Shown in pieces: positions 33,001 to 36,000 of a stretch of DNA of 64,000 nt (its first letter is position 1; the number at the start of each line of letters is the position of its first letter). The DNA is from Phormidesmis sp. Lineage in GTDB: Bacteria; Cyanobacteriota; Cyanobacteriia; Leptolyngbyales; Leptolyngbyaceae. The stretch covers positions 576,001-640,000 of the forward strand of contig CBDFJR010000002.1 in NCBI GenBank assembly GCA_965248535.1. Reading direction: 5' to 3'. A program made the position numbers.

Positions 33001-36000
33001 GAGTCAATCGCTACATCTGCGCCCAACTGCCGTAGAAAATCCTGATTTTTGCCGGATGCCGTCGCATAAACATGGCACCAAGCCTTCATCGTCTTGCGGA
33101 AGTTGTAGTTGAGTTCTGTGACATAGCTAAATCTCCTCTTCGGCGTTGTTCAACATCTTTATTCAATTTTATTAAACACCGGACACGCGACCAAGCTGCG
33201 CGAATCAACAACGGCAAAGCTGACCGCAGCTAGTGTCCTCTGCCCTGAGTCACCAGATCTCATCGCCAAGTCCGCTCCAACCGGGTTGCTACGCCCAGCA
33301 TGGGTGTGAACTAATGGGGTGAAAGTCCCCTGTCGGAGAACCAACGTCCAAATGATCCCAAAAGATCCGAGTGACGACAACGACTAGCTTAAGGTAAGGG
33401 CGTTTCCGCGAGGAAGGGTCTGAAGGAAGCCAGCGGCAAATCTGCGAGCTGAGACAGAAACGTCATAGAAGGCGAGATTCCTGTGGCAAGTGAGCACAAC
33501 ATCATGAAGCCTTTTGGTTCAGGGAACACAGTAAATCAGTTGTGCAGAGACAGTTCACGTTCTTATCTGGGGAGAAGCTCAAAGGGCGGTCTGAGGGTCT
33601 ACGGGAGTCTGATTGAGGTCTAGCGGGAAACGGCTAGGGAGCCACGGAACCCTAAGGACATTCAGGCAGCGTGAGTCATGGCAACAGGACTCATGATTGA
33701 GCAGAAGTCAGCAGAGGTCATAGTAGCCAAACACTCACCGTAATGGGTGAGACAGGGTGAAGGGCTGAACCTTAGAAAGCAGGGAGGAGTTGCAAAGCTC
33801 GACTGGGCGATGAACCCGAACGGGGGAGCTATTTTGTCGGCGCTTAACTGCACAACCAGCCCTGGATATTCAGTTCTATTGAACTGGCTTGTCTAAAACT
33901 TTTCTGGGGACGCGCCCCGTGCGGAGCCGCACGCGGGGTGCCGTGGGGACTGGGGGAGAAAATCCCCTGGTTACCCGATTAGACCGTGCCACACCGATCG
34001 CTCCTAAATTGGGATCACAAGGCTTCAATTTTAACGATACCGCCTTCAACAGTATCAACCTGTAATCGATACCCGTAGAGCATCGCCATTCCTAGCAGAG
34101 GTTCTGTCTCTGATTCCGCAATATCGATCGTGCGGTACTGCCCATCCCAGATCACAGTTCCGGTGTAAAAATCAAACAGAGTTTCGCTGCCATCAGCTAA
34201 GGTCGCTGTGTTGGAAATTGTCCAAGGCAACCCAAAGCGAACGATAGTTTCGGACGGCAAAGATAGAAAGCCATCAAACCCAGTGTCAATCACAGTATCG
34301 ATGACTTGCCGTTGTCTAGATGAGTTACCAACCACAAGGGGAAGTGTTGCTTCACGACGCAAATTCACGACTCCATAAATCATGGATTCTTTTTCAGACT
34401 CCGCGATCCAAAATGATAAACGGCGCGATGTCCAATCCGAACCCCCCAAGGTTGAGCAGCAGGATGGCGTTCAAATAGCCGATCGGTTGCAGCCATAACA
34501 GTTTCATCAACCTCAAAATCTCCGGTTTCGATGTCGATCGCCACAATCTTGCCGTCATTTCCCGCCTCAACTTGCTGCCGAATGCCAGACTCATAGAGTT
34601 CTTGCCCGCGCCGAGCTAACTCTTCTTTGCTGTAACGTCGTTGGCGAACTGCCATAGGGTTGATCTCGTTGCAACTTGACCTATCCATCTTAGCTTGGAG
34701 TTATAGATCGTTGGCTTCAGAGCTTGTGTTGGGTTTCGCGATGCTCCACCCAACCTACAAGATCAGCAATCGCACTACTAACTCAGCCTAAATTACAGCA
34801 AAAGAATTGCTGTTTTATCTGCCTTGACTTCGGTTTACCATATCTTGGTTAACTCGGTCGAGTGTCCATCCTTCCCCTGCTAAACGCAGTGCATACGAAT
34901 GAACTTCCTCGGAGGAAACTTCTTTCCTGAAAATTGAGGAGTAAAGCCTCTGAATATTATTTCTAGACTCGGTGTCAAGAGCAATTCGACTTCTGACTTC
35001 TTGTAATGATAATCCATTAGCTAGACCACCTCTCCAGCTATCTAATCCCCCAGCATCTGGATTTCTTCCCAACACTTCTCGGTAGATAGCTGTAACGTTG
35101 TTTGTAGACTCAGTGTCGAAAGCAATTCGATATCGAGCTTCGTTTAGAGAAAGTTTATGACTGTCAACAGCAAAGCTCTAGCTATCCAATCCTCCTGGAT
35201 CTGAACCTCTTCCTAAAACATCTCGATAGATACGGTCTACTGAAGCTCTTGTGCATGAATTAAAACCTGAGTTTGCACATGAATTTGAGTTTGAGCCTGA
35301 ATTTGGATCTTGACCTGAAAACCTTATTGGAAAACAGATCTTGTTGCTGACAGTATTCTGACCATTGTTATTAATATCTCTAATAATTTTTCCATCTAAG
35401 TCTCGTCTAGCCTCGCTCTCTGTTGAACTTACTCCGCTATAAGTAGAATTACCAGCAGTCCAATCAGCCCTACATTGCCAAGCTTGAGCTTGAGCTAGAT
35501 ACACTTGGTTAGGCTCAATCGCAAATGTCTGAGATGCAGGCATCACAAGGAGAATGACACCAGCTTTGAGGAAGGGTACTTCGTTGAGAAATTTCATTAT
35601 TGAATAAGTAGGAAGGCACAATTATTTGTAGGATGCGGTGGATTCTTTGTAAAGCGTCAAACATATGAACAGCAACGTTTACGCTCCGCTAATCTATCTT
35701 ACGTTTAATTCAACCCACCTACTTACCAGGCGACTTGAATTGAACCCAATCTAATCTCCATACACCTGCCTTGTCAGTCGGATAAGGTCAGGAAAAAGTC
35801 GGAGAAAAGCTCAGATGCACTTTACCGATAACCTCGCGATCGCACATTGAACAGTGATACGTACTCACTTTAGAGTTTGCATCCACCGATAACCTTTTGA
35901 CTGCGCCCTGACAGCAGATTTAGCGGTCTAACAATTATTTAGACGAAAAGTTTCCGTCTAAGATCCCAAATCATCGATTTAGGCTGATGTTAGAGACTCA

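Follow-up and report, generated by a model that had tools for sequence, protein, structure and literature searches.

What does a retropepsin-like aspartic protease do in a cyanobacterium when its gene lies directly behind that of a small protein without a known family, and when this pair occurs several times in the same genome? The question is raised by a stretch of 64,000 nucleotides from Phormidesmis sp. (contig CBDFJR010000002.1, positions 576,001 to 640,000; hereafter the window), for which a genome-wide survey had noted such a pair and had proposed a mobile module resembling toxin-antitoxin (TA) systems. The protease family concerned, TIGR03698 (clan_AA_DTGF), is presumably the same as COG5550/COG3577, the "prokaryotic single-domain clan AA peptidases", which have been without a role for more than 15 years. 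The accessible part of PMC2642776 states that "little is known" about these peptidases and, as the survey had asserted, neither there nor in the other papers that we found is a role or a partner named for the family, as far as the available text of these sources extends. Our literature search also yielded no paper linking retropepsin-like or aspartic proteases to TA systems, and the pairing of such a protease with a 91-residue partner appears not to have been described before.

Results

Organization of the gene pair

The survey had located the pair at positions 34015 to 34655 of the window, and both this location and the gene sizes proved to be right. The features used in the present analysis are the following:

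34380..34655, minus strand: partner gene, 91 aa plus stop (open reading frame and translation)
34015..34383, minus strand: protease gene, 122 aa plus stop; retropepsin-like aspartic protease with an IDTGF motif
34380..34383, minus strand: ATGA overlap of the partner stop with the protease start (from the sequence)
34656..34678, minus strand: leader with ribosome-binding site, consensus GTTGAAACGAGGTCAAGCC; in the window, GAG at 34665-34667 (alignment of upstream regions)
34687..34692, minus strand: -10-like box, TAAGAT, about 32 nt upstream of the partner ATG (alignment of 153 upstream regions)
33298..33969, plus strand: group II intron without ORF (Rfam; ends approximate, inferred from exon junctions)
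33205..33297, plus strand: attC-like remnant, with the 3' arm GTCCGCTCCAACCGGGTTG kept and the 5' arm diverged
32470..32544, plus strand: weak attC-like site (nhmmer E 0.084, not significant)

The arrangement is the one customary for type II TA loci, namely two small, adjacent and co-directional genes that overlap and are inherited together; a stop/start overlap of four bases is, additionally, the usual layout for translational coupling. Among the 153 distinct upstream regions aligned, the consensus of the -10-like box is TAAAAT, and a simple sigma-70 scan finds no two-hexamer promoter upstream of the partner because the box is not accompanied by a fitting -35 hexamer. Two other candidates in this region were discarded: the palindrome GTTGCAAC upstream of the start, considered as an operator, stands at -20 in only 5 of the 153 regions, and a longer partner of 102 aa, beginning at an upstream in-frame ATG, was rejected because the additional stretch is the conserved leader with its ribosome-binding site and one copy in this genome lacks that ATG. 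As for expression, metatranscriptome contigs from three RNA runs span the partner/protease junction, which is a weak sign only, since such contigs cannot prove a single transcript and may derive from DNA carry-over.

A tblastn search of the whole genome recovered all seven pairs (five of them intact) where the survey had placed them. The close gene spacing that it had described takes the form of the same four-base start/stop overlap in six of the seven. Regarding the two damaged pairs (both on the contig designated C5; the window belongs to C2), the one at C5:200936 has a frameshifted partner and a protease with IDRGF instead of IDTGF, and the one at C5:1397174 has a protease with an in-frame stop. 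Residues D33, G35 and F36, claimed to be invariant, are identical in six of six proteases of this genome.

A protease with a predicted retropepsin fold and an intact motif

The window protease scores 52.1 bits against TIGR03698 (E 6.8e-14; 51.8 bits in a second scan), below the family cut-off of 57.35, as the survey's note had it, and its subfamily likewise stays just short of this value. Three paralogues from the same genome (C5:794391, C2:853003 and C5:677755) reach 83.6, 77.6 and 71.9 bits, all above the cut-off, and are family members; for this reason we regard the window protease as a close outlier subfamily, which probably belongs to the TIGR03698 family or borders it. The catalytic Asp-Thr/Ser-Gly motif of clan AA is present as IDTGF at residues 32-36. 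None of the 71 full-length proteases in the protease-seeded set lacks D[TS]G, and among 48 diverse protease sequences G35 never varies and D33 and T34 reach a conservation of at least 90%.

Neither the two proteins nor their profiles credibly match any PDB sequence, which agrees with the earlier claim. The AlphaFold2 model of the protease (pLDDT 94.0) finds Rickettsia APRc (5c9f_A) as its best Foldseek match in the PDB (E 4.3e-6, TMq 0.72), with the XMRV, EIAV, HIV-1 and HTLV proteases also matched at E <= 1e-3, and the fold of the window protease is, as modelled, that of the retropepsins and hence of clan AA. The protein is acidic (pI 4.3), and neither a signal peptide nor a membrane segment is evident in its sequence. 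Both genes are under purifying selection (dN/dS 0.124 for the protease and 0.093 for the partner). One foreign locus (L080) combines an intact partner with a full-length protease that reads INTGF, and inactive copies can therefore persist.

A partner with a globular core and a conserved basic tail

For the partner, the survey had reported no family, and searches of Pfam and NCBIfam at E values up to 10 indeed gave chance-level rows only (E 0.15-0.19). Searched singly against Pfam at E 0.01, 139 of 141 family members had no match and the other two hit one unrelated family each, while no PADLOC model matches the partner or the pair. The structural model (pLDDT 84.9) contains a globular alpha-beta-beta-alpha-beta core at residues 10-73. 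For the partner, Foldseek finds nothing in the PDB at E <= 0.001, and the best hit in a wide VIA-align search is FdhD, with a Z of 4.2 that is below the meaningful level (rmsd 4.8, 78 residues aligned). In these searches (Pfam, NCBIfam, Foldseek and VIA) no known DNA-binding or antitoxin fold or family was detected. The ESM Atlas returned unnamed clusters only; some of its rows for the partner name Planctomycetota. Relatives outside the cyanobacteria also stand among 3461 representative clusters.

The C-terminal tail (approximately residues 67-91) is basic, with a pI of 11.7, as is the N-terminus. Although its confidence in the monomer model is low (pLDDT <50), few stretches of the protein are as well conserved as this tail. 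Across 124 paired and 29 orphan partners, R70, G72 and G80 are conserved at 0.97-1.00, I71, H73, V76, F79, S83 and L84 at 0.90-1.00, and R82 at 0.87 (paired) and 0.93 (orphan); the dN of the tail (0.120) is no higher than that of the core (0.148). Full conservation of the tail in orphan partners fits an anti-addiction role, but it also fits a tail function unrelated to the protease. The charge covariation between the tail and a protease loop (r -0.34) is driven by five subfamily-B pairs and is too weak for use. Tandem proteins with two or three partner domains make up 21 of 150 representatives, which fits a partner that acts as a dimer, and no partner-protease fusion was found among these 150; three apparent fusions (P0401-P0403) were rejected, since they look like frameshifted or deleted pairs that are read through, with one member each.

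Tight pairing and one-sided decay

In 80 protease-seeded metagenome loci, a full-length partner lies directly upstream of 68 of the 70 informative full-length proteases. The association is also tight in 79 genome loci, where 64 of 65 full-length proteases pass a strict partner criterion and the partner of the 65th was intact on inspection. Seen from the partner side, the picture is different: the 85 full-length partners of the 79 partner-seeded genome loci are accompanied by an intact protease in 64 cases, a broken one in 10, none in 10 and a contig end in 1. An intact partner thus stands without an intact protease in 20 of 84 cases, against 2 of 70 for the reverse (Fisher odds ratio 10.6, p 1.4e-4, with rows that are related sequences and not independent). 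Decay is one-sided, the protease being lost about ten times as often as the partner. Such an asymmetry could also stem from a separate use of the partner, or from the protease gene being the longer, downstream target.

The rare cases with a damaged partner appear, from their sequences, to tell the same story, either through the protease or through the tail. In the C5:200936 pair mentioned above it is the protease motif that has changed, and both intact proteases without an intact partner (loci L149 and L156) retain the stretch coding for the partner tail. At L149, an in-frame mini-partner of 33 aa, made of the first 11-12 and the last ~21 residues, stands beside an intact IDTGF protease; at L156, the retained stretch is out of frame with the original start.

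Cassette context and spread

The survey had described attC sites of integron cassettes beside several pairs, and this holds for part of them only: the sites are clear for three of the seven pairs in this genome (26-43 nt downstream of the stop codon of the protease, or on the far side of an intron), the window pair has a remnant, and the other three have none within 3 kb. Using a home-made attC profile, built on sequence alone, we obtained 77 hits in 54 of 159 foreign loci, all 77 in the same orientation, and paired arms with R''/R'-like boxes are visible by eye in the attC alignment. An attC-like site follows the protease stop at 18-46 nt in 33 of the 159 loci, and at least 11 are flanked by attC on both sides, including compact cassettes in which the two genes fill the space between the sites. 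The genome also encodes two integron integrases (TIGR02249, 467.9 and 466 bits, cut-off 265), at C2:161487 and C2:1131581, each separated from the window pair by over 400 kb. Judged by its attC sites, their orientation and the integrases, the pair is, at the level of sequence, a gene cassette of the integron type, and it brings along a conserved -10 box; the conservation of box and leader is what one expects of a cassette that has to express itself.

Beside the window pair, the cassette end is interrupted by the group II intron, which lies antisense to the pair, between the protease stop and the attC remnant. Its domains are recognized above the Rfam gathering thresholds (RF02001, 94.7 bits against 32; RF01998, 63.7 against 35; RF00029, 43.5 against 40), covering domains 1-4 and 5-6, and no long ORF was found inside it. 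Seven copies of this intron, about 98% alike, are present, most of them directly after attC-like sites; the window copy begins with GCTACG where the others have GTGTACG. The attC profile misses the site at 33205..33297, and we call it a remnant solely by comparison with the other insertion sites of the intron; the rest of its R' box lies beyond the intron, at ~33970-33976. The weak site at 32470..32544 is possibly the next cassette boundary.

Copies of the pair were found on ten cyanobacterial plasmids, including pCC7120alpha of Nostoc PCC 7120, and none in 50,697 phage records. In a tree of 64 pairs, the taxonomic families are scattered over well-supported clades that disagree with the taxonomy. 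In the phylum sample, matches occur in 24 of 121 genomes, with 1-5 per genome as against 8 matches (7 loci) in the present one. The distribution is thus patchy, and the pair shows the mobile, multi-copy and patchy distribution characteristic of TA modules. A locus labelled Chloroflexaceae (L029) was set aside as evidence for spread beyond cyanobacteria, because the "phylum" sample of its genome repeats the cyanobacterial one.

Discussion

The proposal of a mobile, TA-like module is supported in part, with the cassette context and own promoter element, the plasmid copies, the tree, the purifying selection and the one-sided decay as the evidence in its favour. We put a probability of roughly 0.55 on the pair being a self-contained, horizontally moving, toxin-antitoxin-like protease/inhibitor cassette. 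In such a cassette, the promoter would give rise to one short transcript, whose translation would begin with the partner and reach the protease by coupling. The protease, a cytoplasmic protein, would then dimerise into an active aspartic protease capable of harming the cell, and the partner would bind it and keep it silent, most likely by placing its conserved basic tail, in the manner of a pseudo-substrate, inside the substrate cleft or close to it. Indirect signs of such binding are the conservation of the tail, the two deletion variants that retain its coding stretch and the opposite charges of tail and protease; indirect signs of toxicity are the decay bias against the protease and the altered motif in the C5:200936 copy. 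Loss of the cassette, or of the partner, would free the protease, and this would keep the cassette stable both in integron arrays and on plasmids; abortive defence could make use of the same release logic.

Cassettes of this general kind exist elsewhere, since chromosomal integrons of Vibrio carry the TA cassettes relBE, parDE and higBA. The pair resembles them in that its two genes are small, overlap, point the same way and have a promoter of their own within cassette arrays, in its multi-copy, patchy and horizontally spread occurrence with orphan first genes, and in a decay biased to the second, toxin-like gene; the presence of TA modules in Vibrio integrons is mentioned in the accessible part of PMC4889954. 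Unlike in the known type II systems, the toxin candidate is an aspartic protease with a predicted retropepsin fold (not an RNase, gyrase poison, kinase or the like), and no fold known from antitoxins or from DNA-binding proteins was recognized in the antitoxin candidate.

Staphopain and staphostatin are a co-encoded cysteine protease and inhibitor, of which the protease is secreted and the inhibitor only guards the cytoplasm. The likeness lies in a protease gene accompanied by a small, dedicated cytoplasmic inhibitor (here a putative one) that would occupy the substrate cleft, whereas our protease is aspartic, both proteins look cytoplasmic and the genes sit on a mobile cassette. With Rickettsia APRc, which is membrane-anchored, and with the Pseudomonas RimB/Rlo system, the window protease shares a single-domain retropepsin fold and the D-T/S-G motif, but it is remote from them in sequence (no PDB match by sequence). 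Rlo is secreted and acts together with an ATP-grasp and a transglutaminase-like protein, according to the accessible part of bioRxiv 10.1101/2025.03.18.643919; as far as the available sources extend, neither APRc nor RimB/Rlo has a 90-aa partner or a cassette context.

Other explanations deserve consideration. The protease might cut the partner as a precursor, for instance in its tail, releasing an active product with no addiction involved. A conserved and apparently unfolded tail with hydrophobic pairs (A-V-Y-H-F-G) would suit a retropepsin cleavage site, a tail in the cleft can, as the survey noted, mean substrate, and both genes are co-inherited and under purifying selection. Such maturation predicts a two-sided dependence, however, and the excess of intact partners lacking an intact protease (20 of 84, against 2 of 70) is not of this kind; orphan partners remain fully conserved, and a distribution that is multi-copy, cassette-borne and patchy would rather be expected of modules for addiction or defence. 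We consider this explanation unlikely.

We see about the same small chance that the pair is an abortive-infection switch, in which an invader removes or titrates the partner and the protease then cuts host or phage proteins. This switch would be a functional variant of the protease/inhibitor cassette, with the same structure, and it shares the structural evidence; plasmids and cassette arrays, which both harbour the pair, are places where defence genes accumulate, and the pair is present in many copies per genome. On the other hand, PADLOC gave no match, no copy was found in the phage records and the neighbourhood of the window copy showed no known defence genes.

A regulatory protease with its target, after the manner of ImmA/ImmR or COG2856-Xre, is more improbable still. 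The partner would then be the regulator of the element, cleaved on a signal, and in accordance with this it is regulator-sized, its gene precedes that of a small protease within a mobile unit, its N-terminus and its tail are both basic, and the leader/promoter region in front of its gene could contain an operator; nevertheless, the partner shows no detectable DNA-binding fold or family, and a compact cassette filled by two genes has nothing else to regulate. Least probable of all, by a wide distance from an even chance, is that the "protease" is a non-catalytic peptide-binding module in a structural or adaptor complex without toxic activity, a role argued for some Ddi1-like domains and compatible with the sub-threshold TIGR03698 score of the window copy, but opposed by the near-universal catalytic residues, by the low dN/dS of the protease and by the fact that the motif has been lost beside the frameshifted partner, an indication that it is of importance.

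Returning to the protease/inhibitor cassette, a partner, a cassette context and a genetic signature of being "dangerous without its keeper" make the function of these proteases directly testable, and Nostoc sp. PCC 7120, with a pair on its plasmid alpha, offers a model organism for the purpose. In its full extent, the reading is more tentative, and we hold it at somewhat less than even odds: the pairs would constitute the first TA family with a retropepsin-fold toxin, held by a partner of new fold whose pseudo-substrate tail lies in the cleft, travelling through filamentous and unicellular cyanobacteria, possibly beyond, as an integron cassette that drives its own expression, and either stabilising arrays and plasmids or serving abortive defence. 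If this is true, the toxins of TA biology would be joined by one with a new chemistry and the antitoxins by one with a new fold, a protein that naturally inhibits a retropepsin-type enzyme would be at hand, and a frequent cargo of the little-studied cyanobacterial integrons would have been identified.

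The gene pair and its copies in the genome

The pair is formed by two overlapping ORFs, in which the TGA stop of the first gene (the partner, of no known family) lies within the ATG start of the second (a retropepsin-like protease of clan AA, DTGF type), as defined by ORF calling and translation:

34380-34655, minus strand: partner ORF, 91 aa
34015-34383, minus strand: protease ORF, 122 aa, carrying the IDTGF motif

Coordinates without a prefix count along the window, and those prefixed C2 or C5 along the two large contigs, C2 being that of the window. A whole-genome tblastn search found seven pairs, the window pair included, at exactly the positions listed in the genome-wide survey's note, plus one fragment of each gene. 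The 4-base overlap occurs in six of the seven pairs, which split into two subfamilies. At C5:200936 a frameshifted partner is accompanied by a protease that reads IDRGF, having lost the Thr of DTG; the protease at C5:1397174 has an in-frame stop. The lone fragments, one of the partner (C5:358296-358416, inside a cluster of attC-like sites at C5:353104-358685) and one of the protease C-terminus (C5:134923-135027), are remains of further copies. Additionally, there are two more distant DTGA-type retropepsin-like genes (C5:583357-583626, plus strand, and C5:315923-316189, minus strand; 43-45 bits against TIGR03698), beside which the partner profile found no partner-like ORF; a different 93-aa ORF overlaps the start of the former.

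Cassette context

An ORF-less group II intron lies directly downstream of the window protease gene. It is one of seven copies in this genome, about 98% alike, and its 5' end is altered. The elements of this context are the following:

about 33298-33969, plus strand: group II intron, about 700 nt, with three Rfam matches above gathering
C2:156838, C2:1133219, C2:1136162, C5:44911, C5:793607, C5:933016: other intron copies
C5:1939401, C2:1673000: diverged intron copies
C2:161487-162425, plus strand, and C2:1131581-1132513, minus strand: integron integrase genes (TIGR02249, 468 and 466 bits, far above cut-off)
34656-34678, minus strand: 5' leader, consensus GTTGAAACGAGGTCAAGCC, from alignment with relatives

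Introns of this type are known to target attC sites antisense, and nearly all copies here occupy an identical position in attC-like sites (roughly 85-nt imperfect inverted repeats with R''/R'-like boxes), antisense to the cassettes, with most of them directly behind such a site. Since these copies encode no intron protein, they must rely for their mobility on one supplied from another source. Two copies lie in the array adjoining one integrase gene; in the integrase-adjacent arrays the introns are antisense to the direction away from intI, which gives the orientation of the cassettes. The gene-poor stretch holding the attC remnant and the intron of the window also contains a ParA/AAA_31-type ATPase gene (31663-32438, minus strand), split into two overlapping ORFs and probably a frameshifted pseudogene.

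A home-made, sequence-only attC profile, built from 11 intron-associated sites, gave about 25 significant sites across both large contigs, mostly single or in small clusters. By this profile, the proposal that several pairs adjoin attC sites holds for three of the seven: the site follows the protease stop at a distance of 43 and 26 nt in two pairs and is set apart by an intron copy in the third. At the window pair it is recognisable by its 3' arm only, and for three pairs the profile found none within 3 kb. Among 159 foreign loci (from genomes and metagenomes) the profile made 77 hits in 54 loci, all 77 sharing one orientation relative to the pair. A site follows the protease stop by 18-46 nt in 33 foreign loci. 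At least 11 loci have sites flanking the pair on both sides, so that the pair takes up a whole cassette of about 0.9-1.2 kb.

Because most cassettes depend on the promoter of the integron, as stated in PMC4889954, TA cassettes need a promoter of their own. A -10-like TAAAAT (TAAGAT at 34687-34692 in the window) and a conserved leader with a ribosome-binding site precede the partner in 153 distinct loci; a simple two-hexamer scan did not call this candidate promoter. The leader is conserved well past the needs of a ribosome-binding site and may be a regulatory RNA or operator element.

Spread, selection and expression

In an evenly drawn phylum sample, the partner was found in 24 of 121 genomes, none outside the window's class: besides this genome, 23 of the 40 belonging to that class have it, as against 0 of the 80 from other classes. 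The other carriers have one to five matches per genome versus eight, at seven loci, in this one. In a maximum-likelihood tree of 64 concatenated pairs, Microcystaceae, Chamaesiphonaceae, Leptolyngbyaceae and Pseudanabaenaceae are scattered over well-supported clades, and four times two copies of one genome fall in different clades. Copies are also found on ten cyanobacterial plasmids (seven typed as conjugative or mobilizable), including pCC7120alpha of Nostoc sp. PCC 7120, where the pair has the 4-base overlap and is annotated as 'hypothetical protein' and 'clan AA aspartic protease'; no copy was found among 50,697 phage records. The genome behind foreign locus L029 (G121) has three partner copies; its record, titled Chloroflexaceae bacterium, is probably mislabelled, as the phylum sample drawn for it is identical to that of the cyanobacterial genome studied here.

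The partner has a median dN/dS of 0.093 and the protease one of 0.124 (147 sequence pairs with dS 0.1-1.5, out of 1500 sampled among 126 distinct gene pairs). Metatranscriptome contigs from three runs of two studies, with relatives about 90% identical, bridge the two-gene junction; they are a weak sign of expression, given that DNA carry-over is possible and that a contig is no proof of one shared transcript.

Protease and partner families

The window protease scores 52.1 bits against NCBIfam TIGR03698 (clan AA, DTGF), slightly below the cut-off of 57.35, and the three proteases of the second subfamily are plain members (72-84 bits). Its family counts 1390 clusters. The protease is acidic (pI 4.3), its sequence shows neither a signal peptide nor a membrane segment, and it matches no PDB chain by sequence. 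Its model (pLDDT 94.0, 48-sequence alignment) is closest in structure to the Rickettsia retropepsin-like APRc (5c9f, E 4.3e-6, TMq 0.72), followed by the XMRV, EIAV, HIV-1 and HTLV proteases.

Pfam gave nothing usable for either protein, PADLOC gave no match, and the partner matches no PDB sequence; the survey's placing of the protease under its family cut-off, and of the partner outside known families, stands. When 141 partner members were scanned singly against Pfam, 139 had no match at E 0.01 and each of the remaining two matched a single unrelated family; the ESM Atlas holds unnamed clusters only. The partner family comprises 2106 clusters at 90% identity (E <= 0.001) and, at 50% identity, 3461 representatives, of which 1518 reach E <= 1e-10. 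The partner model (pLDDT 84.9, 141-sequence alignment) consists of helix, hairpin, helix and strand (residues 10-73), then a C-terminal tail with confidence below 50. Foldseek found no fold relative at E <= 0.001, and the best hit of a wide VIA-align search (Z 4.2) is not credible.

Among the best 150 partner representatives, 21 carry two or three tandem partner domains (e.g. proteins P0242, P0247 and P0277; P0392 is a further case), which fits a partner acting as a dimer, and none contains a protease domain. Many tandem proteins have a composition unlike that of cyanobacteria, which hints that the family reaches other phyla. In the chimeric partners P0399 and P0400 (193 and 202 aa), P0395-P0398 and P0258, the core and the tail start are followed by another C-terminal region, which in two clusters matches antitoxin families, namely Unstab_antitox (PF09720, E 6e-7) and, less strongly, the weak match Phd/YefM; these may reflect module swapping as in antitoxins, or read-through of rearranged cassettes.

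The partner tail

The tail stretch R-I-G-H-R-A-V-x-x-F-G-x-R-S-L is among the best-conserved parts of 124 distinct paired and 29 orphan partners: R70, G72 and G80 stand at 0.97-1.00, I71, H73, V76, F79, S83 and L84 at 0.90-1.00, and R82 at 0.87 (paired) and 0.93 (orphan). At non-synonymous sites the tail has diverged no more than the folded core (0.120 against 0.148), and it is strongly basic (pI 11.7), in contrast to the acidic protease. Being conserved yet unstructured in the monomer model is as expected for a motif that folds on its target and fits, without proving, the idea put forward in the survey's note of a tail laid into the cleft of the protease dimer. The two subfamilies also differ by a charge swap between the end of the tail and the loop that precedes the P-L-L-G motif of the protease, but this correlation (r -0.34) rests on five sequences.

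Pairing and one-sided decay

Pairing was followed from both sides. In 79 partner-seeded loci (species-representative genomes, nearly all named cyanobacteria), 64 of 85 full-length partners are followed directly by a full-length protease gene that retains the catalytic motif (DTGC in one); the protease is broken in 10 cases, absent in 10 and lost to a contig end in one. In 80 protease-seeded metagenome loci, all 71 full-length proteases have D[TS]G, preceded by a full-length partner in 68, a contig end in one and an internally deleted partner in two (L149 and L156). An intact partner thus lacks an intact protease in 20/84 cases, and the reverse holds in 2/70 (odds ratio 10.6; Fisher p 1.4e-4, which overstates significance because the rows are related sequences); the direction and size of the asymmetry are still clear. 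Gene length, which differs 1.3-fold, does not account for it.

In both exceptions the deletion removed the folded core and retained the tail-coding stretch. In L149 (positions 1395-1496 of that locus) an in-frame deletion has joined the first 11-12 residues to the last about 21, giving a 33-aa ORF that ends four bases before the intact protease gene; in L156 (positions 1407-1496 of its locus) a different deletion keeps the same stretch beside an intact protease gene, but no longer in frame with the original start, so that it can be read only from a TTG. Inactivated proteases beside intact partners occur too, as in foreign locus L080 (full-length INTGF protease).

Discussion

We consider the pair to be a protease and its keeper with toxin-antitoxin logic, a reading to which we give a probability of about 0.55. 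In this mechanism the free protease would be harmful to the cell and the partner would neutralise it, probably via its tail; the more specific detail of a tail in the cleft is tentative and carries rather less of our confidence. Such a module best explains the small overlapping genes with their own promoter, the carriage on cassettes and plasmids with patchy multi-copy occurrence and horizontal spread, the strong purifying selection on both genes with a strictly kept catalytic motif, and a protease loss tolerated about ten times oftener than partner loss. A defence switch would be a functional variant of this same structure. A maturation pair, in which the partner is a substrate of the protease, is disfavoured because it predicts two-sided dependence, and a regulator/protease pair meets with no sign of DNA binding.

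In the literature searched, which takes in few subscription journals, we found no description of such a pair. The only papers that came up concern an unrelated CRISPR-associated retropepsin of Sulfolobales (PMC3973734), the secreted Rlo proteases of Pseudomonas (bioRxiv 10.1101/2025.03.18.643919) and, in a 2009 survey, these prokaryotic peptidases, which it describes as little known (PMC2642776). The logic proposed here, toxin-antitoxin or protease-inhibitor, is a known one; what would be new is the fold of the toxin and the family of its partner.
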